A stretch of DNA of 29,708 nt from an uncultured Pygmaiobacter sp. (GTDB lineage Bacteria; Bacillota; Clostridia; Oscillospirales; Ruminococcaceae), in contig CALXBG010000028.1 of NCBI GenBank assembly GCA_944386485.1, positions 1 through 29,708 on the forward strand, written 5' to 3'. The translations under genes and the position numbers were made by a program. Below the pieces are notes generated by a model. The model did not search any database. It was given only the letters and a program-made list of their open reading frames with translations, and was not told the DNA's origin. How positions within the stretch are numbered: the stretch's first letter is position 1; every line of letters begins with the position of its first letter. Shown one piece after another: positions 1,906 through 15,616 of this stretch.

Positions 1906-3849
1906 ATGGCGGTATTCAACTGCAAGATGTGTGGGGGCGACCTCGAGGTGATCGACCCTGAAAACGGATTGGCACAGTGCGAGAGCTGCGGCAAGAAGCA
2001 GACGTTGCCAAATGAACAGGATGAGCGGAAGGCCAATCAGTTCAACCGGGCCAATCACTACCGGCGCAGCAATGAGTTTGACCGGGCGGCGGACGCCTAT
2101 GCCAAGATTCTGGACACCGATCCCGGCGAGGCGGAGGCCTATTGGGGCATCGTGCTCTGCCGGTACGGCATCGAATATGTAGAGGATAAAAAGACGATGC
2201 GCCGGGTGCCGACCTGCCACCGCACCCTGACCCGCTCAATCCTGCAGGACCCCGATTACCTGCAGGCGCTCTCCTGTGCAAAGCCGCTGGCCCGGCTGCA
2301 GTATGAGGAGGAGGCGCAGGAGATCGACCGGCTGCAGAAAGAGATTCTCGCGCTGGCGAGTAAGGAGGAGCCGTTCGATATCTTCATCAGCTACAAGGAG
2401 ACCGACGAGCGCAGCGGTCAGCGCACGCCTGACAGCGTGTTGGCACAGGAGATCTACACCGCGCTGACGCGAGAGGGATACAAGGTCTTTTTCTCCCGCA
2501 TCACGCTGGAAAACCGGCTCGGACAGGATTACGAACCGATCATCTACGCCGCGCTGCGCTCAGCGAAGGTGATGGTGGCGGTGGGTACCCGGCCGGAGTA
2601 CTTTTCGGCTCCCTGGGTGCGCAACGAGTGGAACCGCTATCTCGGGATGATGGAGGAGGCGCAGGGCGGCAAAACCCTGATCCCGGTCTACCGGGAGATG
2701 GACCCTTACGACCTGCCGGAAGAGTTCTCCCATCTGCAAGGGCTTAACGCCGCCAACATCGGCTTTTTGCAGGATCTGCTGCACGGCATCGAGAAGCTGA
2801 TCCGGCAACCCGCGCAGCCGGCCGCAGCCGCAGCGCCGGCTGCGCCGTCGGGTGGAGCCAATGTGGAATCGCTGCTGCAGCGGGTGGATTTCTTCCTCGA
2901 GGACGGCAGGTTTGACAGCGCGCGGGAGTACTGCAACCGGGTGCTGGACATCGCCCCGACCGATTGGCGGCCCTATCTGGATCTGGTGCTCTGTGCGAGA
3001 CAGCAGCGCACCGCCGCGGCCCTTGCCGCGCAGGAGTCCAGCATCCACACCGACGAGAATTTCCAGAAGGCGCTGCGGTTTGCACCAAAGGAAAAAAAGG
3101 AGGAGCTGATCGGCTACGCGGCCGCGGCCTTTGCTGCCGAGCAGAGCAAGGTCGAGGAACTCTGCGCCGCCGAGCAGCAGAAGGAAGAGGGCTTGTTGCG
3201 TGAGTTGAAACCGCTCGAAGAACAGCTCGCACAGCCGCTGGCGCAGCTGCGGGAGAAAAAACAGAAGGCCGACGAGCTCGGGCGCCAGATTGCAGAGGAG
3301 GAAAAAAAGCAGCAGGAAGCGGCGGCGCAGAAGGCCCAGCACTACAATGTCAAACAGGCGCTGTATCAGAAATATAAACAAGAGAACGCAAAGGGCAATG
3401 TGGTCGAGGGCAATCTATTTGGCGATCTGGTCGGCTCTTTGATCCTGGCCGCGATCTGTTTTGTCATCGGGCTGATCGCCGGGGCGCTGTTCTTTCCACT
3501 AGGGGTCATCATCTGGGTACTGGGCGGAATTTCGATTCTTTTTTCGAATGTACAGACATATAGAAACAGGGAACTTCAGACCGACAGAAAAGAATACCAA
3601 AAACAGGGGAAAGAGGCCAAAAAGGCGCTGACGAAAGAGATGTCCAGTAAGCTGAAGGTGCAGTCGCTGGTCAAAGAAAAAAATCGATATGATGTTGAGA
3701 GCAACCAGATTTATCAGGTCAACAAGGCGCCGATGGATCAGCGCGCTGCGCTGATCCGACAGATCAACGACTGCAGAGAGAAGGTGCAGCAGAGCAAGCG
3801 CAGCCAGGAGGAGAATCTCAAATTGGCGCAAAAGATAGGGATTGTCTGA
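1906..3849 (+). CDS. Membrane-anchored TIR-domain protein: N-terminal zinc ribbon, helical (TPR-like) region, TIR domain, two TM helices, C-terminal K/E-rich coiled coil
   Basis: 647 aa. RBS AGGAGG 9 nt upstream. N-terminal ribbon CKMCGG...CESCG. TIR motifs at about aa 155-260: PFDIFISYKETDE, GYKVFFSRITLENRLGQDY, AKVMVAVGT and SAPWVRNEW, the last carrying the conserved Glu. Hydrophobic stretch LILAAICFVIGLIAGALFFPLGVIIWVLGGISILF at about aa 500-545. A lysine-rich coiled coil follows to the end. Confidence 0.75.
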   Translation: MAVFNCKMCGGDLEVIDPENGLAQCESCGKKQTLPNEQDERKANQFNRANHYRRSNEFDRAADAYAKILDTDPGEAEAYWGIVLCRYGIEYVEDKKTMRRVPTCHRTLTRSILQDPDYLQALSCAKPLARLQYEEEAQEIDRLQKEILALASKEEPFDIFISYKETDERSGQRTPDSVLAQEIYTALTREGYKVFFSRITLENRLGQDYEPIIYAALRSAKVMVAVGTRPEYFSAPWVRNEWNRYLGMMEEAQGGKTLIPVYREMDPYDLPEEFSHLQGLNAANIGFLQDLLHGIEKLIRQPAQPAAAAAPAAPSGGANVESLLQRVDFFLEDGRFDSAREYCNRVLDIAPTDWRPYLDLVLCARQQRTAAALAAQESSIHTDENFQKALRFAPKEKKEELIGYAAAAFAAEQSKVEELCAAEQQKEEGLLRELKPLEEQLAQPLAQLREKKQKADELGRQIAEEEKKQQEAAAQKAQHYNVKQALYQKYKQENAKGNVVEGNLFGDLVGSLILAAICFVIGLIAGALFFPLGVIIWVLGGISILFSNVQTYRNRELQTDRKEYQKQGKEAKKALTKEMSSKLKVQSLVKEKNRYDVESNQIYQVNKAPMDQRAALIRQINDCREKVQQSKRSQEENLKLAQKIGIV

Positions 3850-3853
3850 ACCG

Positions 3854-6580
3854 ATGCGCCGTGAGACAGGGGGGCAGCACAAGGCCGAAAACCCTGTGCT
3901 GCCCTTTGAGAAAGGATGTGGGGGAAGGATGCCGCAGTTTGTGCCGATCCCGCTGAAAAACGGGCAGGTTTTGGGCTGTGTCGCCTATGAGATCACCTCG
4001 GTGCCGCAGGCATCGCAGGAGGGCGCAGCGGCGCAGACGGAGAATGAGACCGCTTTTTACAATCTGCTGGGCGAGGTGTACCGCTACTGCGCACCGGATG
4101 CGGCGGTGCTTGAGCTGCTCTGGTCGGCTCAGCCGGTCGAAAACCAGCCCCATGCGGCCCAGCTGCATCTGTACGCGGTGGCGCGGATGCTCTGCGCCGA
4201 CCGCAAGGAGCTGGAAACCCGGCTGCAGGCAGTCTGCGACAACCTGACCACCCGGTTGCAGGCCGGCGGCTTTCGGTTTGCCGAGGCCGACCTCGAGGCG
4301 CTGCGACCCTTTCTGCCTGACGGCGCCGCCTGTGTCAACGCGGTGACCAAAGCGGAACAGTGCACGTTGCACCCGCAGGCCGCCTTCCCTTATTATTATG
4401 CCGAACCGCTGCCCGAGCACGGCACCGACGATTTTGCGATGCTCAGCCGCACGATGGCCGAGCTGCCGGGCAGCGCGGTTTCGTTTCAGCTGTTGCCCAC
4501 CGGCTATACCGCCGCCGAGAGCGCCGCGTTGGAACAGATGCAGTCGCTGCTGGCCCAGGTTGTCGGGGGCACCACGATCGGCGGGCGGGCCTACCGCGAC
4601 CCGCTGGCCCAACCGGCGCTGGACGCGATCGGCCATACCGCCGCCCGGCTGCGCCAACCGGTCTTTCGCTACAACATCCTCGCCTTCGGCAACCAGAGCC
4701 AATGCGCGGCGCTGACCGCGCAGATCATCAGCCTGCTGCGCTGTGGCAGTGCCCGCAGCTTCGTCACCGTCAACCTCAACGCCGAACGGTTGGATCTGCG
4801 CCGCCAGTTCGCCTGGTATCCCTGGCAGATCAACCAAAAATTGTTGCGCGGTTACCGCAATACCCAGCTCTGGAGCCGGGTCAAGCTGCCGCAGGCCCTG
4901 TTTCGACTGCCGATGCTGCTCGGCGCCGAGGAGGCGACCACCTTTTTCCGACTGCCGCTGGGGGGCGACAAGCTCGCCGGATTGCCCAGCCACAGAGCGT
5001 TGCAGAATGCCCAGCAGCTCGACCCGCGGGTGGTTGCGGGGGAGAACCTTCAATTCGGGATACTGGCGGGGGGCGTCGCGCCGATCGGCTGCCCGCCCAA
5101 GAATCTGACCAAGCACATGTTGGTGGTCGGCAAACCCGGTACCGGAAAGACCACCTTTTCGGTCAATCTTCTGTTGCAGCTCTACCAGAAGGGGGTTCCC
5201 TTTCTTGCGATCGAGCCGACCAAAACCGAGTATCGGGCGATGATCGACGCCATCCCGGATCTGCAGATCTTCACCCCCGGCAACAACGGGGTCAGTCCCT
5301 TTGTCATCAATCCGTTCATTCCGCCCAAGGGGATCACCGTCGAGCAGTTTGTGCCCAGCCTTGCCAGCGCATTCAAGGCGGCATTCTCGATGCCGTCCCC
5401 GCTGGACACCATCTTTCAGGCCGCGATTCAGGAGGCGTATGTCCAGTATGGTTGGCGGGATTACAGTACCGCCGCCGACCCGGACGTCACCCCGTTCGGG
5501 CTGCACGAGTTTATCCTCGTGTTCAAGAATCTCATCGCCCGGGAAAAGTACAGCGCCGAGGTCAAGGGCAACCTGCAGAGCGGCGGTGTGTTGCGGCTGC
5601 GCAACCTGATTGAACAGAATGCCAACATCTACGACACCACCCACTCGGTGCCGCTGGAGGATCTGCTGGTGCACCCCACCGTGCTGGAACTCAACGCGAT
5701 CGACAATGAGGAGCAAAAATCGGTGCTGATGGCGCTGCTGCTCATCAATATCTGCGTTTATACCAAGCACAACCATCTGGGAGACGGCAAGCTGAAGAAC
5801 GCGATTTTGATCGATGAAGCGCATGTCCTCTTCAAGGCGGGCGGATCCAGCGAGGGGGCGAACACCACCGTGCGCTCACTCGAAAATATGCTCGCCGAGA
5901 TCCGCTCCTACGGCACCGGCATCATCATCGCCGACCAGTCCCCGGCGGCAGTCGGAGCCGAGGTGGTAAAGAACACCGAGGTCAAGACGGTGTTTCAGCT
6001 GGTTGACGTCGGCGACCGCAAGACCATCGCCGCCACCACCAACATGACCGCGGAACAGGAGGAACAGATTCCCCGGCTCGGGGTCGGCGAGGCGTTTATC
6101 AGCTATGGCCTGCTGGCCGAACCGGCGCTGGTGCAAACCCCCGATGTGCGGGAGGAACAGGGGATCCGGCTGAGTGTCTCGAACGAAGAGGTACACCGCC
6201 GGATGACCTATTGGGACAGCCACGGGCCGCTGTTGATCCCGTTTTACGAGTGTGGACAGTCGACGGTCTGCGCCGGCGGCTGCGATCTGCGGCTGCGCAG
6301 CGATGCGGCCTTCTTCGCGGCGCGGTTTGCCCAGAGCTACGGCGGCAAGATCACCGACGCGAAGAGCCTGTGCGCCTATGCCCGCGCCCTCGACGGCTGG
6401 CTGGATGAGCAGACCCCGCAGAGCGACCCGGAACGGCGGCGCCGGCTGCACAACTGCACCAAGATCCGGCTGATCCGCCGGATGATGCAGCAGCGGGAGA
6501 TTCCGCAGAGCCCCGCCGCCTATCAGAAACTGCTGCAGGCCGCCCTGGCCGAGGGAGCCGCCCCGCAGCCCGAAGCATAA
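3854..6580 (+). CDS. HerA/FtsK/VirB4-superfamily P-loop ATPase (DUF87-like) with a ~420 aa uncharacterised N-terminal region
   Basis: Long ORF abutting the TIR gene stop. Start is uncertain: ATG 3854, ATG 3929 (MPQFVPIPL, preceded by gggggaagg) or the TTG at 3842. Walker A MLVVGKPGTGKTT at about nt 5120-5155. Walker B ILIDEAHVLF at about nt 5800-5830. The following R...GTGIIIADQSP arginine-finger/sensor motif is typical of HerA-like ATPases. No TM segment. Confidence 0.6.
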   Translation: MRRETGGQHKAENPVLPFEKGCGGRMPQFVPIPLKNGQVLGCVAYEITSVPQASQEGAAAQTENETAFYNLLGEVYRYCAPDAAVLELLWSAQPVENQPHAAQLHLYAVARMLCADRKELETRLQAVCDNLTTRLQAGGFRFAEADLEALRPFLPDGAACVNAVTKAEQCTLHPQAAFPYYYAEPLPEHGTDDFAMLSRTMAELPGSAVSFQLLPTGYTAAESAALEQMQSLLAQVVGGTTIGGRAYRDPLAQPALDAIGHTAARLRQPVFRYNILAFGNQSQCAALTAQIISLLRCGSARSFVTVNLNAERLDLRRQFAWYPWQINQKLLRGYRNTQLWSRVKLPQALFRLPMLLGAEEATTFFRLPLGGDKLAGLPSHRALQNAQQLDPRVVAGENLQFGILAGGVAPIGCPPKNLTKHMLVVGKPGTGKTTFSVNLLLQLYQKGVPFLAIEPTKTEYRAMIDAIPDLQIFTPGNNGVSPFVINPFIPPKGITVEQFVPSLASAFKAAFSMPSPLDTIFQAAIQEAYVQYGWRDYSTAADPDVTPFGLHEFILVFKNLIAREKYSAEVKGNLQSGGVLRLRNLIEQNANIYDTTHSVPLEDLLVHPTVLELNAIDNEEQKSVLMALLLINICVYTKHNHLGDGKLKNAILIDEAHVLFKAGGSSEGANTTVRSLENMLAEIRSYGTGIIIADQSPAAVGAEVVKNTEVKTVFQLVDVGDRKTIAATTNMTAEQEEQIPRLGVGEAFISYGLLAEPALVQTPDVREEQGIRLSVSNEEVHRRMTYWDSHGPLLIPFYECGQSTVCAGGCDLRLRSDAAFFAARFAQSYGGKITDAKSLCAYARALDGWLDEQTPQSDPERRRRLHNCTKIRLIRRMMQQREIPQSPAAYQKLLQAALAEGAAPQPEA

Positions 6581-6592
6581 AGGAGAAACGCG

Positions 6593-8167
6593 ATGTGGGA
6601 CGAAGAATTTGACAGCGATCTCGACACCGGAAGCGACGTCGATTGCGATGTCGACGACGGCGGTTATGACCTCGATGACAGCGGATCCGATCTGCAGGTC
6701 AATCTTGACGAGAGCGTGGATTTCGATCTTGCCGATGTCGAACCGGCCGAACCCGCGGATCTCGATCTGGATGCAGAAGACTTTGAGGAACCCGCGGCGG
6801 ATCTGCCGGTGGAGCTCGAGGATGCCGGCGATCTTGCCGACGGCATGGCGCTGGATGAGGTCGAGGTGGCCGACCTCGGCGATCCCGAGGAGGAGCCGTC
6901 CGCCGGCGGCGAAATCAGCGATGAGCTGCTCGAGGCTTGGATGCAGGCTGAGCAGGAGGGGATACAGGAGTCCGGCGAAGAGGACGTCAAGGTACTGCGC
7001 CGGGATCCGGATGAGCTGATGGAGACCGGGATGCAGAATGTCGAGGAAATCCTCGACGTCCGCCGCGACGACATGATGGATAAGGGGATGAGCGAGGAGG
7101 AGATTGAGCAGGCAATCGCACAGGAGCGGGAGGCGCTGCGGTGGGAGTTTGTGCAGGACGCCTTCCCCGAGCGGTTTGAAGCACAGGAGCCCGAAGAGCT
7201 CGAAATGGAAGAGACAGCCGACCTTGCAGTAAAGGAAGAGAACGACACCGAAGAGGTTACCGATCTTGCAGCTGCACAGGATCTCGACCTGGAACAGGAT
7301 GAGGCGGATGCCCTGGAAACAGAATCGGAGGAGCTGGATGAGACGGCGGATACAGGGCTTGAGGGGACTCAGGTGACAGACGCCGATCTAGAGGAGGAAA
7401 CCGAGCCGGAGGACGATCTCGCCGAGCCGCTGGAGGAAGAGGAGATTTCCGAGCCGCTGGCAGAGGAACTGTCAAAAACCGAGCTGGAGGATACGGCGCT
7501 GCCCGAAGACGTTTCGGATGAGGAGGAAGAAGCGCCCGATCTGATGCGGGAGCTGGTGCGGCAGAATGTGCAGGACGTCCGGCTGCCGCGAGAAGGCGGC
7601 ACCTGGGCCGACCCCGCGCAGGCGGGGGAGGGGCTCTGGATACCGGACGACGATGCCGAACTCTTCTGGAAGGAGGAAGCCGGCGGCTCGATGACCGGCG
7701 CCGAGTTCAAACAGCGGTATGGGGTCGAGGGGGTGACCTACCGGGACGGAGAACCGGATTTTGAACCGTTCGAGGACGAACTGTTGGGCCATGTTGAACT
7801 GGAGGAGATGCCGACCGAGCGCACCGGGGCAGAGGGCAGCTATGCCGCCGCAACCCGCGCCGCCGCCGACCGGCTCGGAATCAGCGAGCAGGAGGTCGAG
7901 CAGCGGATGGAGGAGCGGGGGTTGACCTGGCACGAATGTGGCGACCGGCGAACGGTGCGGGCGATTCCGACCGAGGTCAACGCCGCGTTTCCCCACACCG
8001 GCGGAATCAGCATCCAGCGCGGCGTGCGGGCGATGGCGGAAGAACTAGCCGACCGGTATGGAACCGTGCGGCTGGATCGCAACGGCCCTGCCGGAACAAC
8101 CGAAGGGTTGACCGAGGCCCGCGGTGCCGTCCGGAGGGAATACCGTGGACAAAAGCGGAAGCTGTGA
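6593..8167 (+). CDS. Extremely acidic (D/E-rich) low-complexity protein with a small, more ordinary C-terminal region
   Basis: 524 aa. RBS AAGGAG 7 nt upstream. The first ~340 aa are dominated by D, E, L and A (DLDLDAEDFEEP, DEVEVADLGDPEEEP, EEETEPEDDLAEPLEEEE). The C-terminal ~180 aa are of normal composition. Translation is tightly coupled to the ATPase gene, with a 12 nt gap. Confidence 0.6.
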   Translation: MWDEEFDSDLDTGSDVDCDVDDGGYDLDDSGSDLQVNLDESVDFDLADVEPAEPADLDLDAEDFEEPAADLPVELEDAGDLADGMALDEVEVADLGDPEEEPSAGGEISDELLEAWMQAEQEGIQESGEEDVKVLRRDPDELMETGMQNVEEILDVRRDDMMDKGMSEEEIEQAIAQEREALRWEFVQDAFPERFEAQEPEELEMEETADLAVKEENDTEEVTDLAAAQDLDLEQDEADALETESEELDETADTGLEGTQVTDADLEEETEPEDDLAEPLEEEEISEPLAEELSKTELEDTALPEDVSDEEEEAPDLMRELVRQNVQDVRLPREGGTWADPAQAGEGLWIPDDDAELFWKEEAGGSMTGAEFKQRYGVEGVTYRDGEPDFEPFEDELLGHVELEEMPTERTGAEGSYAAATRAAADRLGISEQEVEQRMEERGLTWHECGDRRTVRAIPTEVNAAFPHTGGISIQRGVRAMAEELADRYGTVRLDRNGPAGTTEGLTEARGAVRREYRGQKRKL

Positions 8168-9121: not shown

Positions 9122-10498
9122 TCAGAGATTGAATTCTAACTCCCGCGCCCGGAAAAACTCGATACCGCGCAGATGATAGGTCCGGCGGGTGGGAGTGAAG
9201 ATCCGCAGATCACATCGCCCAGCAGAGGCAGCGGTCGGGAACCGGGTGATCAAAAGGGAGAGGTCATCGGTATAGAGTGAGACCAGATACCGGGTGAACC
9301 CACGGCAATAGCTGACCGAAAGGGTGCGGTTTTCATTGCGGCAAAACCCCTCACGGAAAAAACCCTCAAGACTGCATAGCAGAGCGCCTAGTGCGAGCAG
9401 AGCCAAAATCCAGAGCAAAAAGCTCACCTGCGGCAGCACCCGCAACGAGACGATTCCCAGCGAGAGAACCAGAATCAGCAGCGAGCCGGGTTTCCACAGA
9501 TACTGCGGCAGGCTTTTGCGGCGGGGATTGCACAGCGGCCGGTCAGGCGGGCAAAACTCGGGCAGCAACTGGCGCAGCTGTGGGACACTTTTTTTGCTCA
9601 GGGTAAAGATTGGCAGGTCCTCACCGCGAAAGCAGCCCGCGCTCAGATAGACCGGGCAGCGGCGCAACAACCGTGCGGCCGGGGTAATTCGCAGACTGCT
9701 GGCGGTAATCGCGTCGACAAAGACCCGCCGTTCGGTATGGGTCAAAAGACCGCCTCGGCTGAGCAGCACACCACCCGAGCGGGCGGCGGTAAATCGGTAG
9801 GTCCGCAAAAGGCTGTTGAAAAGAGAAAGGGCGAAGACCAGCAGCCCTATCGTTACCACAAGCGAAGCGCCTGCCGGCACAAAAGCGGTCAACAGATGCT
9901 CCAGCCGGGTGATCCCGTCGATCGCGAGTGCCCGAAAATCCTCCCCGAGAAGAGAAAAGATTCGGCGGGCGGAAAGAACCGAAAAAAAGGCGGTGGCGAT
10001 CACATTTGCCGACAGCAGCATGAAGAAAAGCCGTTCGGCCCCGACCGGAGTAAAGGCACTCGCCGCAGCGGCATCAGGCACCAGACGGCGGGCAAGCCGA
10101 CGTGCCTGACGGGCGGATAGGGTGATTTTGATTCTGCGCAGACCGCTGCCTGCGCGAAAATAAATGGTCAACACCGAGGCCCCGAACAGGCGGCAGAGAA
10201 GGTTGCGCTGTAACTCCACCGCGCTCACCTGCGCGGTAGAGGTGCGGTTGCAGCGGCGCAGCAGAACACCACTTCGAATCATCAGTACACCGTCGGTCAA
10301 TGAGAGGGAACTGGCTCGATGCATTGCCGCCAAAATCCCACCGCAGGCAAGCAAGATGGCAAACTCCTGCATCAGGGTTCGCCAGGCGGAAAAAAAGGCA
10401 AAATCCAGTACTGCCTGCAAGACCGGCAGCAGGCAGAGCAGCAGAAAGTACTTGACATATTTTAGAAAATGCAGCGGGTGTAATCGAATGGGGTGCAT
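9122..10498 (-). CDS. YdbT-like membrane protein with repeated bacterial PH (bPH_2) domains
   Basis: Start reassigned to the internal ATG at 10498, which overlaps the upstream gene stop (ATGA). The N-terminus MHPIRLHPLHFLKYVKYFLLL carries hydrophobic helices. Repeated units of the type R...L..R......L..DG bPH-like follow. Arrangement matches the B. subtilis ydbS-ydbT pair. Confidence 0.55.
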   Translation of the reverse strand: MHPIRLHPLHFLKYVKYFLLLCLLPVLQAVLDFAFFSAWRTLMQEFAILLACGGILAAMHRASSLSLTDGVLMIRSGVLLRRCNRTSTAQVSAVELQRNLLCRLFGASVLTIYFRAGSGLRRIKITLSARQARRLARRLVPDAAAASAFTPVGAERLFFMLLSANVIATAFFSVLSARRIFSLLGEDFRALAIDGITRLEHLLTAFVPAGASLVVTIGLLVFALSLFNSLLRTYRFTAARSGGVLLSRGGLLTHTERRVFVDAITASSLRITPAARLLRRCPVYLSAGCFRGEDLPIFTLSKKSVPQLRQLLPEFCPPDRPLCNPRRKSLPQYLWKPGSLLILVLSLGIVSLRVLPQVSFLLWILALLALGALLCSLEGFFREGFCRNENRTLSVSYCRGFTRYLVSLYTDDLSLLITRFPTAASAGRCDLRIFTPTRRTYHLRGIEFFRARELEFNL

Positions 10499-10914
10499 CA
10501 ATCCTCGCCTCCCGTCAGCAGTGCGGTTTGCAGCCGCTCGCTGTCCGCAGGTGATAACCCGATCAGAATTACCGTCGCGCCCGAGGTAAAAACGACCATC
10601 CCGCAGGCGCCCAGCAATCGGCCCAGCGGGGTGGAGAAGGTCCACACACCGGTCACGCTCCGCAGCGGAACCCGGCGCAGCGTGCGGTAAAAAAAGCCCC
10701 GCTCAACCGAAAATTCTCGCCCGCTTACCCGCACCCGGTACCCTAACTGGTGCAGTAGTGCGAGTCCCACCGAAGCCAACGTGCCGCAGAGAAAGACAAC
10801 CAATGCCGCTAGCCAGTTCCAAAATAACCAGAGCAGAAAACCGCAAACCCCAAACAGGCCGGTCAGCCAGAGAGCAGCCAGCATCGCGCCTTTTCGGGTT
10901 ACGGTATAATTCAT
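10498..10914 (-). CDS. YdbS-like small membrane PH-domain protein
   Basis: Real start is ATG 10914 (MNYTVTRKG...; RBS GGAG 8 nt upstream). The upstream 120 codons of the track ORF overlap the neighbouring gene and are rejected. The protein has two N-terminal TM helices and then a bPH-like domain (YRVRVSGREFSVERGFFYRTLRRVPLRSV). Confidence 0.55.
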   Translation of the reverse strand: MNYTVTRKGAMLAALWLTGLFGVCGFLLWLFWNWLAALVVFLCGTLASVGLALLHQLGYRVRVSGREFSVERGFFYRTLRRVPLRSVTGVWTFSTPLGRLLGACGMVVFTSGATVILIGLSPADSERLQTALLTGGED

Positions 10915-10945
10915 AAGAAATACTCCATTTAGTATAAAAACTCGG

Positions 10946-12352
10946 TTACCAGGTTGGATCAATTTCCTGCCCGTCCTGCAGATTCGAGAGCACGGAGAGC
11001 AAACGGGAAAGATAACTGCTGCGAACAGCGTACTGTGCGGTTCCATCAATCTCGATCGCATGCCGCTTGACGCCATAGGGGATAAACCGGATGACCTCGG
11101 TACGGTAGCCGGAGTCCGGCAGCTCAGGGCCGGCAAGCGGCTCGTCGTAAACAAAGGTGATGACCGCGTCGGGCGGAATGTTCTGCATCGGGTCTTCCAT
11201 CTCATATTCCGCCCGCAGCGAGCAGAGTAGACGGTAAAACTGCTCGAAGGTCTCCTGTGAGAGAAATTCTCCATTGAAAGAAACGCTGGTTTCGGTCAGG
11301 TCGAACAGATAGGTTTGCCCGGACGCCTCGATCTGAATCTCCCGCAATGTATCCAGCGCGGGTGCCATCAGATACCGGCTCATCAGCGCATAACGGGTCA
11401 CCCCGATCCAATGAGCTTCGCTCAGATTAAGGCGATAGACTGCGGGGACCCCTTCACGATACAGATAGTAGAAATTGCCGGTAAAATTACCAATCCGCAG
11501 GGTGACGCTCTGGCCCAATAAGGTGAAAGAAAGGGTGGAATAATCGCTTTCATCGGACAAGCCATACTCTTTCAGTTCAGGTTCGCTGGGATAAAGGGTC
11601 ACCACACCATCGGCCCGCAGCGTGCTGAGCTGGTCAAAATAGGTCGTAAAGGCATCGGGGTCAACGTAGCTCAGCCGATCCCCAGCCAGCTGATAAGAGT
11701 AGCTCAGTTCCATCCCGTCGGTCTGGGGGATGGGCAGACGGTCCAGCCGCAGCGTCTGACCGTTTGTGGTCCACTCGATACTGCTGGGCAGCGCATTGCC
11801 CGCTTCCTCTACCGGAGAGAGGGAGAGATCCAGATAACTGCTGATATCAGACAGCAGATACCGGATGCTGCTGCGCCCGATCTGGTAGACCGTGTTCCCG
11901 CCGTTGACCCGGATATAGTATTGATCTGTTCCGGTAATCTGTGCACCGACCTCGATGGAGATTCCGCCCCCGTCGGAATAGGTGGCCTGCGCCTGTGCGA
12001 GAGGAAAATCAAATCCGTAGTCGATCGGTGCGTCGGGATCCTGCACCAGCGGGCCGACTGCCGTCAGGCTGGTACACTCCCGCGCCAGCTCGTCGCAGGC
12101 AGACTGCGAGAGAGGAAATCCGGCAAGCCGGTCACAGGAATAGACCCCGTCTTCTGCGGTGACCGAATAGGCGCCGCCGGCATTGATAATCTCGACCGAG
12201 GCGAAGGCGTTCTGTGCCCGGTCCGAGAGGGTGACCTCGGTCGGTGCTTCGCTGCGGGAAGAGGGGAAAAATAGCGATAGCGAGACGGCGAGGACCCCAA
12301 GCACCGTAAAGGCGAGCAGAGAGGTAAAAAATTGTTTGTTGATCTTCATCAA
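10946..12352 (-). CDS. Secreted or membrane-anchored protein of unknown function (DUF4340-like), first gene of the minus-strand operon
   Basis: 468 aa. RBS GGAGG 6 nt upstream. N-terminal signal anchor KQFFTSLLAFTVLGVLAVSLSLFF. The mature part is S/T/Y/D-rich. The domain name is assigned from memory only. Confidence 0.5.
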   Translation of the reverse strand: MMKINKQFFTSLLAFTVLGVLAVSLSLFFPSSRSEAPTEVTLSDRAQNAFASVEIINAGGAYSVTAEDGVYSCDRLAGFPLSQSACDELARECTSLTAVGPLVQDPDAPIDYGFDFPLAQAQATYSDGGGISIEVGAQITGTDQYYIRVNGGNTVYQIGRSSIRYLLSDISSYLDLSLSPVEEAGNALPSSIEWTTNGQTLRLDRLPIPQTDGMELSYSYQLAGDRLSYVDPDAFTTYFDQLSTLRADGVVTLYPSEPELKEYGLSDESDYSTLSFTLLGQSVTLRIGNFTGNFYYLYREGVPAVYRLNLSEAHWIGVTRYALMSRYLMAPALDTLREIQIEASGQTYLFDLTETSVSFNGEFLSQETFEQFYRLLCSLRAEYEMEDPMQNIPPDAVITFVYDEPLAGPELPDSGYRTEVIRFIPYGVKRHAIEIDGTAQYAVRSSYLSRLLSVLSNLQDGQEIDPTW

Positions 12353-14020: not shown

Positions 14021-14071
14021 GAAGGTACAAAATTCCTCAGAATGAAAACAGGATCAAAAGGAGGGAGTCAG

Positions 14072-15616
14072 ATGAACTGTCCCAATTGTGGCAATCCCGT
14101 TTCAGAGGGAGCTTCTTTCTGCCCGTTGTGTGGGTCAAGGGTGAATGCGGCGTTGTCTGCACAGCACCAGGAACAGTCGGCGCCGGGCAATCCGGTACAG
14201 CCGGTGCAAGGGGAGAGCGGCCCGCAGACGGCCGCGCAGCAGGGCAATGACCAGTCTGGCTATACGCAGCAGAGTTACCCGCAGCAAGGTTACACGCAGC
14301 AGAGCTATGGCCAGCAAAGCTACACCCAGCAGAACTACGGCCAACCGGGGTATGGCTACAATCAGCCGGATATGGGACCGCAGCGGCCGGTCAGTCCCTA
14401 TTATCAGCGGCAGTTTGCCCTGATCGCGCAGGGCCAGCGCAGCCGGTTTAACTGGGCGGCTTTCTTTCTCGGGCCGTATCATGCGGTCTACCGCGGTCAT
14501 ACCAAGCGGTTTCTCGCCCTTTACCTGCCGCTGCTGATCCTGACCTTGGTCAACGAGGTCGCGCTGATTGCGGCATTTGGAGCGAATAACCTTTCTCTGA
14601 TCGGGATCACGGTGATTCTCAGCTGGGTTATCTCCCTGGTTTCCATCGGCCTTGCGATCTATAATGGACTTACCTTTAATAAAAGCTATTTTGCCCTCTG
14701 TGGCGGTGACCCGCGGGTGCCATCCTGCGGCGGACGGCTTGCCGTGACCATCATCACGGTGACGCTGGTCAGCATTGTGGCCGCGGTTGCCCTTTTCGGC
14801 GTCATGATGAACCAGGCGTTCAGCCAGCTGGAAAATTTGGGTGAGTATCCCTTCGATAACTCTTACGTTGAGCAGCTGCCCCCTGACGGTACCGTGCCGC
14901 AGGGCGGACAGCAGGAGCCGCAGACCGGTTCGCAGTCCGCTGTGACCGGCGGTACACAGGATATTACCGGGCTGCTCGTTGATTACGGCGACGTCGTCGC
15001 CGATCAGCTGTACCTGCTGGGCTGGAACGACCCTGATATGACCGAGGCGGAGCAGATTGTCAACAGCGCTTATCTGTTCCGCTCGGATAAGGTGAGCATG
15101 ATTGACGCCCTCAGCACCGCCTCGCAATCGATCTACTGGGAGGAGGTACAGCCCAGCGAAACAGTTTTTGAAGGAGCCAGATATTTTTCCGTCTACTGTA
15201 CGCTGGAAGAGGGAGACATCGTCTTTGACTTCGCCATCGGCGGGGGCAATGTGATGGTTTTCGGCTGCTATGTCTGGGAGGGCGAGAACTATGTCGGGCT
15301 GAATGAGCAGCAAGCTTCTGCGTTGCTGGAAGCTCTGTACAGCCGGGCGGGCGTACCCCAGTCGATTCCCTATCAGGCGCGCGGAAGCTGGCGGACCTCT
15401 GCCGGTGAGGAGTTCGTGCTGGATGGCGAGACTCTCAACGGACAGCCCTATACCCTCTGGTTTATGAGCGAAGATATTCTTGCGGTCTATCTGGACAACG
15501 TCGAGGGAGTAGAGGGCGAGTATTACATGATGATAGAGGGCCCGATCCTCAATGTCTGGCAGTACGACGCGAGCGGGGCGATCATCAACGATCTGTACTA
15601 TACAAAAGCCAACTAA
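14072..15616 (+). CDS. Zinc-ribbon membrane protein: N-terminal ribbon, Q/Y-rich repeats, DUF2628-like TM module, C-terminal extracytoplasmic domain
   Basis: Start at ATG 14072 (RBS AGGAGGGAG). Ribbon CPNCGNPV...CPLCGS. Repeat tract SGYTQQSYPQQGYTQQSYGQQSYTQQNYGQPGYGYNQ. The FNWAAFFLGPYHAVYRG motif is followed by 3-4 TM helices and a ~290 aa C-terminal domain. Confidence 0.6.
   Translation: MNCPNCGNPVSEGASFCPLCGSRVNAALSAQHQEQSAPGNPVQPVQGESGPQTAAQQGNDQSGYTQQSYPQQGYTQQSYGQQSYTQQNYGQPGYGYNQPDMGPQRPVSPYYQRQFALIAQGQRSRFNWAAFFLGPYHAVYRGHTKRFLALYLPLLILTLVNEVALIAAFGANNLSLIGITVILSWVISLVSIGLAIYNGLTFNKSYFALCGGDPRVPSCGGRLAVTIITVTLVSIVAAVALFGVMMNQAFSQLENLGEYPFDNSYVEQLPPDGTVPQGGQQEPQTGSQSAVTGGTQDITGLLVDYGDVVADQLYLLGWNDPDMTEAEQIVNSAYLFRSDKVSMIDALSTASQSIYWEEVQPSETVFEGARYFSVYCTLEEGDIVFDFAIGGGNVMVFGCYVWEGENYVGLNEQQASALLEALYSRAGVPQSIPYQARGSWRTSAGEEFVLDGETLNGQPYTLWFMSEDILAVYLDNVEGVEGEYYMMIEGPILNVWQYDASGAIINDLYYTKAN

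Follow-up and report, generated by a model that had tools for sequence, protein, structure and literature searches.

The open reading frame (ORF) at positions 6593–8167 (+) of a 29,708-nucleotide stretch of DNA from an uncultured Pygmaiobacter sp. of the Ruminococcaceae (GenBank assembly GCA_944386485.1, contig CALXBG010000028.1), called the window hereafter at its full length, codes for the effector of a four-gene membrane-associated conflict module. The module comprises an SPFH scaffold, a TPR-TIR membrane protein, a HerA/DUF87 ATPase and the effector, which combines a polyacidic N-terminal leader with a C-terminal domain of the WHH-type nuclease toxins. The same kind of leader preceded unrelated toxin domains in related loci. 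We favour, with a probability of roughly 50 %, a leader that is coupled to the ATPase and, for the nuclease version, a release inside the producing cell.

The acidic effector gene

The ORF starts with an ATG and encodes 524 amino acids (aa), as read from the window sequence. A ribosome binding site (AGGAG, 6581–6585, +, also read from the sequence) is located 7 nucleotides (nt) before the ATG at 6593 and immediately after the stop codon of the ATPase gene (6578–6580). The gene is the last of a same-strand cluster of four, in the order SPFH, TPR-TIR, ATPase and acidic nuclease, in agreement with the original prediction, made from the sequence alone, that the 524-aa protein closes the operon. 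A convergent HAD hydrolase gene lies 68 nt past the effector stop codon, therefore the window has no room for an immunity gene at this place.

Residues 1–320 hold 54 aspartates and 75 glutamates, but only 4 lysines and 8 arginines, that is 40 % D+E (129 D/E versus 12 K/R) and a net charge of −117. The charge profile bore out the very low isoelectric point (pI) expected earlier: calculation with our own pKa set yielded approximately 2.9 for residues 1–320 and 3.5 for the whole protein, while the Biopython value of 4.05 is the lower limit of that routine. The D+E content was 10–15 % in the other operon proteins and 6–15 % in neighbouring proteins, thus acidity as an organism-wide property was rejected. 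Among 1657 segments of 100 aa in the six frames of the 29.7-kb window, 26 reached at least 35 % D+E, and all 26 were inside this ORF. Neither a signal peptide nor a transmembrane (TM) segment was predicted for the effector protein.

The richness in GA(C/T) and GAG observed before was found again as a share of GAN codons of 40 % in the first 320 codons. It did not extend to true DNA repeats: Tandem Repeats Finder detected no tandem repeats in the gene, and the repetitive appearance was attributed to codon composition only. Read in the reverse frame, the GAN codons give rise to two serine-rich antisense ORFs, at 6664–7248 (−, 41 % Ser) and 7369–7710 (−, 43 % Ser). The former is an artefact and not a gene and the latter a reverse-frame by-product, as had been suspected.

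Anatomy of the leader

Part boundaries were set by reference to the 526-aa orthologue in L007, from an identical four-gene cluster (L007/L008; L numbers denote related loci). A full-length AlphaFold model of the effector was built on 19 sequences. Because the alignment and the model agree on a layout of tract, hairpin and tract, the acidic part is not uniform low complexity; it is modelled as two disordered tracts around a small folded hairpin. Tract 1 (residues 1–127; 6593–6973, +), starting with MWDEEFDSD, was 29 % identical to L007 with its composition kept. Residues 1–120 had 40 % D/E and no K/R at all, and the predicted local distance difference test (pLDDT) was below 50 across most of residues 1–107. 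Tract 2 (residues 194–318; 7172–7546, +) had 43 % identity to L007, a D/E content of 46 % in residues 201–320 and pLDDT values below 50 for residues 198–315. The helical-hairpin module in between (residues 128–193; 6974–7171, +; VKVLRRDPDEL...DKGMSE...EFVQDAFP) was with 80 % identity the best-conserved segment. Its helices at 139–163 and 168–190 were predicted with a pLDDT of 93–97, and it holds 8 of the 12 K/R residues of the leader.

These results modify the description of the first ~340 residues as almost entirely D, E, L, A and P and as intrinsically disordered. The strong acidity was evident and disorder is predicted for both tracts, but the five amino acids account for only 63 %, and the confidently folded hairpin interrupts the sequence.

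A WHH-type nuclease domain with a His-Glu dyad

Residues 319–524 (7547–8167, +, including the stop codon) form a WHH-type HNH/EndoVII nuclease domain of a WHE variant with a basic C-terminal tail, 61 % identical to L007. The Pfam family WHH (PF14414) matched with 33.7 bits against a gathering cut-off of 25.1, and Colicin-DNase with 30.2 bits against a cut-off of 25. AlphaFold placed residues 330–490 of the full-length protein in a fold of high confidence, thus the C-terminal part is globular as proposed. The domain model, with a core pLDDT of about 90, showed a beta-beta-alpha element consistent with the His-Me finger fold and a fold match to the RhsP-WHH toxin. A profile search also matched the RhsP-WHH chain (E=7e-4), aligning WHEC...N...HTGG to WHHH...H...HTGG and EPDF to FPDF. 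With this C-terminal "WHECGD" domain, a nuclease toxin of the WHH-type HNH class, the protein is regarded as an effector, which is more than the decoy or chaperone partner considered earlier.

The active-site motif W446-H447-E448-C449 (7928–7939, +) was invariant in the nine-sequence alignment A1; in the full-length alignment A3, the same applied to H447 and E448, and W446 was near-invariant. H468 of the HTGG motif (7994–7996, +), the "fourth His" of WHH domains, was invariant in both alignments, N463 was invariant and EPDF near-invariant in the nuclease alignments. An exhaustive profile search revealed 1864 cluster representatives of the domain. His-Glu was present in 152 of the 152 members with a detectable motif, and WHE in 144. 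Word-indexed homologue searches had under-sampled the family, with 8 matches for the nuclease domain and 2 for the hairpin module; the apparent rarity was an index artefact.

Canonical WHH domains are described with one tryptophan and four histidines, the fourth being reported as necessary for activity in RhsP and YPO3609 (PMC13515810). The signature of the window protein, W446-H447-E448...N463...H468-T-G-G, departs from this pattern, as glutamate replaces the second and asparagine the third histidine. For this reason the domain is classed as a sister clade (WHE) of Tox-WHH and not as a canonical member, and its nuclease activity is presumed from conservation. The domain itself (7547–8164) is acidic, with a pI of about 4.6 and a net charge of −13, except for the basic tail RREYRGQKRKL, which is unusual for a non-specific DNase domain.

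The N-termini on WHE domains varied: polyacidic, LXG-like and coiled-coil regions as well as other domains were observed, and among the 80 members whose N-terminal region reached 80 aa or more, 21 were polyacidic. The occurrence of the same toxin domain on varied N-termini is a hallmark of polymorphic toxins (PMC3482391). The polyacidic leader in turn was found with four different C-terminal domains.

A leader common to unrelated effectors

The acidic region is not peculiar to the window protein, but a leader common to unrelated effectors of the same system. Loci with window-type ATPases have a core of an SPFH gene, often a gene for a four-TM protein with the motif YSDPMS, the ATPase gene and one to three genes for TPR-TIR proteins. 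The gene after the ATPase is variable and encoded an Endonuclea_NS_2 domain (L028), a Gln_amidase (L029), a HExxH/DUF6782-like zincin (L027, L011) or an acidic-only protein of 128 aa (L009). Every one of these products begins with a polyacidic region. The same kind of leader thus precedes unrelated C-terminal domains after one ATPase family, hence it is a system-specific N-terminal module on interchangeable effector domains and not a property of the nuclease.

In human-gut and other metagenomes, a scan with an ATPase alignment by itself yielded 221 confirmed relatives of the ATPase. The 80 best loci were retained, and 70 of these had a downstream same-strand ORF. An acidic leader was defined as a 50-aa N-terminal segment with a D/E share of 30 % or more and a K/R share not above 4 %, and was sought in the next three same-strand ORFs. 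It was present downstream of the ATPase in 62 of the 70 loci (56 of 63 distinct ATPase sequences), whereas of the 436 remaining ORFs of these loci only 3 qualified. Raising the threshold to 36 % D/E left 50 of the 70 loci and 2 of the 436 control ORFs. The C-terminal domains at this threshold were WHE nuclease (14), HExxH (14), acidic-only proteins of less than 200 aa (16, several redundant), NS2 (1), deamidase (1) and unidentified or cut (4). Many effectors started with M(C)D[DE]xFD or a similar sequence, comparable to the start of the window protein, and the surveyed loci usually carried SPFH and TPR-TIR genes as well. A polyacidic N-terminus after the ATPase gene is a simple rule for finding effectors. 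The effector set is small and modular, which makes it amenable to experiment, and it includes an uncharacterised WHH-type clade with a His-Glu dyad.

The hairpin module was seen in other acidic-leader nucleases, sometimes twice, and in HExxH effectors. A role of the hairpin as nuclease-specific cis-immunity domain was rejected on account of the latter. Nuclease effectors of 530–631 aa beside the same 902-aa ATPase (L056–L071) had indels inside the acidic leader, and the leader of the related locus L017 contained EELEEEEDIPEEL-type repeats. The location of the length differences and these repeats suggest a rapid expansion and contraction of the leader.

Acidic-only proteins of 91–157 aa were located after the ATPase in L009, L033, L034, L045 and L083, and in the first four loci a TIR gene followed directly. 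In L094–L104, about ten near-identical human-gut contigs, a leader of 112 aa and an Endonuclea_NS_2-like (NucA-type) nuclease of 150 aa were separate consecutive ORFs (e.g., L094:10579–10917 and the next ORF), due either to a natural split or to a recurrent frameshift. Both arrangements would suit a regulatory plug: an acidic polypeptide that mimics DNA, occupies or inhibits the DNA channel of the HerA-like ATPase and gives way when foreign DNA displaces it, with the TIR protein as main effector and the nuclease as an option. A DNA mimic acting on the translocase, as the original prediction had it, seems plausible from the acidic-only sequences at the same position, and the charge density of the tracts fits a mimic. 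Yet the tracts are predicted to be disordered, whereas known DNA mimics fold into a scaffold that holds their charges in ordered arrays, with carboxylates spaced like the phosphates of DNA. In most cases the leader is joined to a toxin domain under clear purifying selection, and DNA binding by the ATPase is an assumption. We consider the regulatory plug unlikely.

Linkage to the ATPase and two ATPase clades

Thirteen genome loci with the nuclease domain were recovered through the WHEC motif. In ten of them a DUF87 ATPase gene was adjacent, usually immediately upstream; they came from Ruminococcus, Lachnospiraceae, Acetatifactor, Eubacterium, Campylobacter, Paenibacillus, Selenomonadaceae and others. 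The four-gene arrangement of the window recurred in other loci. The homologues were thus not unlinked from the ATPase genes, and the early suggestion of a tie to the HerA-like ATPase was confirmed.

The nature of the nuclease N-terminus followed the ATPase clade. Beside window-type ATPases of ~880–900 aa, usually accompanied by SPFH and TIR genes, it was polyacidic (window, L007, L014, L015, L017), whereas beside the other clade of ~1030–1140 aa the WHE nuclease had a short N-terminus that was not acidic. A DUF6985 ORF followed the leaderless nuclease in L019, L020 and L023, at the position of an immunity gene. After the acidic-leader nucleases of the window, L007, L015, L017, L030 and L056–L071, no immunity candidate was recognised.

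This distribution is in line with an acidic region that acts in cis only, as an immunity within the molecule that neutralises the attached nuclease domain or keeps it soluble, without interaction with the ATPase: immunity genes are missing for nucleases with the leader, while the leaderless WHE nucleases have the downstream DUF6985 ORF. The situation can be likened to colicin DNases, which are neutralised by acidic immunity proteins. However, the same kind of leader including the hairpin occurs on peptidase and deamidase effectors, which do not bind DNA, and among the loci examined the leader was present only beside one ATPase clade. A purely cis-acting inhibitor is therefore very improbable.

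The loci of the other clade (L019:1757–5908; L020:680–9500; L005:1889–10993) differed in their gene content. In L023:2213–10900, two genes for dynamin-like GTPases (LeoA/LeoBC-like) were located upstream, and in L005 Big_2, patatin and Mbeg1-like lipase genes lay between the ATPase gene and the nuclease gene. The second DUF87 ATPase clade seems to belong to a sister system that uses other partners for membrane remodelling. In Dorea (L001–L004:10001–11472), a WHE nuclease of 261 aa with a mildly acidic N-terminus was inserted between trmD and rplS. It was followed by a variable ORF of 105–144 aa, a possible immunity gene, and had no ATPase nearby.

Proposed mode of action

For the acidic-leader nuclease we propose the following sequence of events. 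The leader would be recognised by the ATPase or by another core component. The pairing of a ring ATPase of a DNA-pump superfamily with an unfolded polyanion suggests that the HerA-type ring may engage the leader as a DNA-like substrate or plug. Such an engagement would tether the nuclease to the membrane complex and mask it electrostatically, which would explain why an immunity gene does not follow the nuclease. ATP-driven threading, triggered via the TIR/SPFH membrane components, would then release or translocate the nuclease. In the least certain step, we prefer to export a release within the producer itself that serves abortive infection or another response to invaders. The lack of an immunity candidate behind the acidic-leader nucleases argues for a nuclease that is held inactive, and used, inside the producer, and an active cytosolic TIR domain fits an intracellular function. 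The contrast to the WHE nucleases beside the other ATPase clade, which have no acidic leader, adds support, as do the invariant Walker motifs of the ATPase, the invariant catalytic glutamate of the TIR domain and the mobile or conflict-type genes near several loci.

A wider generalization is tentative: that a HerA-superfamily ring ATPase was re-purposed to recognise and thread polyanionic, DNA-like leaders and so controls or translocates interchangeable toxins (nuclease, peptidase, deamidase) within a membrane platform of an SPFH scaffold and TIR receptors, some of the latter with the topology of Toll-like receptors. If true, a DNA-pump ATPase would have been turned toward protein substrates by charge mimicry, and a testable account would be at hand for a cell that carries a DNase toxin without an immunity gene. 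Effectors would then be recognised on a new principle, and a new type of Gram-positive machine for secretion or immunity, widespread in gut Clostridia, might be at work.

Several observations weigh against an ATPase-coupled leader with intracellular release. The coupling of leader and ATPase is inferred from adjacency and co-variation only. The small conserved ORFs after the HExxH effectors (96–115 aa) and the deamidase effector (75 aa) have the appearance of immunity genes and are more in keeping with exported antibacterial toxins, and the same nuclease domain is fused elsewhere to LXG-like secretion domains. No PADLOC system model matched, and the cluster in the window is surrounded by housekeeping genes and is not part of a defence island. 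An ATPase scan of viral contigs gave no confirmed match, so the system does not look phage-borne. Finally, a glutamate stands where WHH toxins have the second histidine, and activity of the domain is a presumption drawn from its conserved residues.

The small ORFs lead to the alternative of an exported polymorphic toxin. The Gln_amidase effector of L029 was followed by the ORF of 75 aa, and homologous ORFs of 98–104 aa were near each of the zincin effectors of L027 and L011. In general, a well-conserved ORF of 96–115 aa, mostly 98 aa, without family match was present beside nearly every HExxH (DUF6782-like) acidic-leader effector (L011:10127–10423; L027:10515–10829; many of L032–L109); it could be an immunity protein or a chaperone. 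An immunity gene downstream of the toxin, typical for polymorphic toxins, was thus absent from the window and, for the HExxH and deamidase effectors, was indicated by position only.

In the case of export, SPFH protein, membrane protein and HerA-like ATPase would form a novel machine of Gram-positive gut bacteria resembling secretion systems of type VII (T7SS). The leader, which begins with M(C)D[DE]xFD and contains the hairpin, would be a secretion signal that keeps the toxin unfolded, and the nuclease would kill competitors. The constant N-terminus, the interchangeable C-terminal toxins and the small conserved ORFs after the HExxH and deamidase versions correspond to the logic of polymorphic toxins. 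The nuclease domain also occurs with LXG-like N-termini, and in L006 it is located beside an FtsK/SpoIIIE ATPase and two proteins of ~95 aa. The hairpin, with a conserved glycine in its turn, presumably resembles the substrate hairpin of WXG100 and LXG proteins. ATPases of the FtsK/HerA family drive T7SS (PMC3482391). However, a toxin delivered to kin would be self-destructive without immunity, and an immunity candidate was not recognised after any of the acidic-leader nucleases named above. The system of the window has no obvious channel protein, its only TM hairpin being in the TIR protein and the four-TM protein being absent, and no role in secretion is known for a cytosolic TIR domain with an intact catalytic site. 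Export is possible, but in our view less probable than the favoured reading.

Relation to known systems

Tox-WHH domains (PF14414; Vibrio RhsP-WHH, PDB 8bd1; Yersinia YPO3609) have the W-H, xPDF and H-T-G-G motifs in common with the effector and are likewise interchangeable C-terminal toxin domains. The domain described here differs by glutamate in place of the second histidine in all 152 members and by asparagine in place of the third in the window protein. Its N-terminus is a polyacidic leader instead of an Rhs, LXG or PAAR region, and no immunity gene of the SUKH, Imm28 or Imm37 type is adjacent.

The anti-phage systems SIR2-HerA and DUF4297-HerA share with the module the combination of a HerA-superfamily ATPase with an NADase-type domain (SIR2 there, TIR here) and a nuclease. 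However, the ATPase of ~880 aa is far under the curated HerA cut-offs, and the SPFH protein, the membrane components and the polyacidic effector leaders are without counterpart in the HerA-effector systems. T7SSb systems with EssC and LXG toxins also pair an ATPase of the FtsK/HerA superfamily with toxins of constant N-terminus and variable C-termini, some with adjacent small ORFs. In contrast to T7SSb, the operon in the window has no genes for an EssC-type ATPase, WXG100 proteins, EssA/EssB or EsaA, the ATPase has one DUF87-type domain and lacks a TM segment, and the leader is predicted as disordered and polyacidic instead of a long helical LXG domain. Colicin immunity proteins, Ocr and ArdA resemble the leader in their very low pI and dense negative charge beside a DNA-acting enzyme. 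These are separate folded proteins, whereas the acidic part of the effector is fused in cis, predicted to be disordered and likewise found on effectors other than nucleases.

Neither the leader nor the whole system was covered by a model of Pfam, PADLOC or NCBIfam, and the latter two had none for the acidic protein either. A published description of the system was not found in the full-text literature on the themes SPFH/TIR/HerA, DUF87, DUF6985 and Band_7_1, most subscription-journal papers being beyond reach. The polyacidic leader as a common address of effectors and the combination of SPFH protein, HerA-like ATPase and TIR protein appear to be new. The logics of HerA plus effector and of polymorphic toxins are already known, and with the effector domain a known toxin family gains a new clade. 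There is a substantial chance that the system is more distinct than a variant of these logics. If the leader is what the ATPase recognises, the module represents an unannotated, apparently undescribed conflict system.

The operon and its surroundings

A promoter-like site (327–355, +), a mere consensus match of sigma-70 type with 9 of 12 positions, is located 60 nt before the start of the SPFH gene. This gene (415–1836, +) codes for an SPFH/Band_7_1 protein of 473 aa with a C-terminal double zinc ribbon (Pfam Band_7_1 E=1.2e-45; DZR E=1.3e-7), for which no TM segment was predicted. An SPFH homologue was clustered with the ATPase in most related loci.

The second gene (1906–3849, +) encodes a membrane protein of 647 aa with the order zinc ribbon, TPR, TIR, TPR and coiled coil (Pfam TIR_2 E=3.5e-14 at residues 159–281, plus TPR) and a predicted TM hairpin at residues 502–550. 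The TIR motif W-x-x-N-E-W with the canonical catalytic glutamate (E240) was invariant in 59 of 59 distinct homologues, thus the TIR domain is probably enzymatically active.

The third gene (3842–6580, +) is an ORF of 912 aa for a DUF87/HerA-like P-loop ATPase (Pfam HerA_C and DUF87; FtsK_SpoIIIE only with E=0.0025). An identical (100 %) database protein has 883 aa, so the TTG start at 3842 is probably too early and the true start lies near 3929. With the latter, the TIR and ATPase genes are ~79 nt apart instead of overlapping. Walker A (GxGKT) and Walker B (DEAH) were invariant in the ATPase alignment A4. The protein has a single DUF87-type domain, no predicted TM segment and an N-terminal region of ~400 aa without known family. 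Its closest solved relatives were HerA proteins (E=1.5e-10 and weaker), some of them from anti-phage complexes, and the nearest solved or curated relatives in general were HerA, CedD and VirB4-type proteins, all far below the family cut-offs. NCBIfam HerA_antiphage scored 27.7 bits against a cut-off of 800, which places the protein outside the curated anti-phage HerA family, and the PADLOC HerA models covered only the C-terminal half with E values of ~1e-8.

In most loci, the gene for the four-TM protein of ~195–240 aa with the YSDPMS motif stood between those for the SPFH protein and the ATPase (L028:5314–6000; L029:5282–5974; L027:4495–5082; L017:1545–2270). This protein had no Pfam, PADLOC or NCBIfam match and was absent from the window, L007 and L030. 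The related loci often carried two to three TIR paralogues. Some TPR-TIR proteins ended in DUF6273, which was also present as a separate ORF in L028 and L029 (L011:1344–3860; L029:12737–14703; L028:13589–14521 and 14590–14676). DUF6273 is a C-type-lectin-like domain known from targets of diversity-generating retroelements and from phage receptor-binding proteins (PMC10743442). In view of the invariant catalytic glutamate, TIR proteins with this domain would resemble the topology of Toll-like receptors if they have a TM hairpin like that of the TIR protein in the window. Insertion sequence elements, HipAB and other toxin-antitoxin genes and a phage capsid gene were found near several related loci.

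The rest of the window contains housekeeping genes: the his operon, MatE, TrkA and tRNA synthetase-like genes. Two overlapping ORFs with bPH_2 domains, 9122–10645 (−) and 10498–11274 (−), appear unrelated to the operon; the product of 507 aa is very basic, with a pI of about 11 and 60 arginines. Another ORF of 524 aa (14042–15616, +), 6 kb away among the housekeeping genes, carries a zinc ribbon at its N-terminus and matches no other family. Accessory proteins with zinc ribbons recurred in the related loci.

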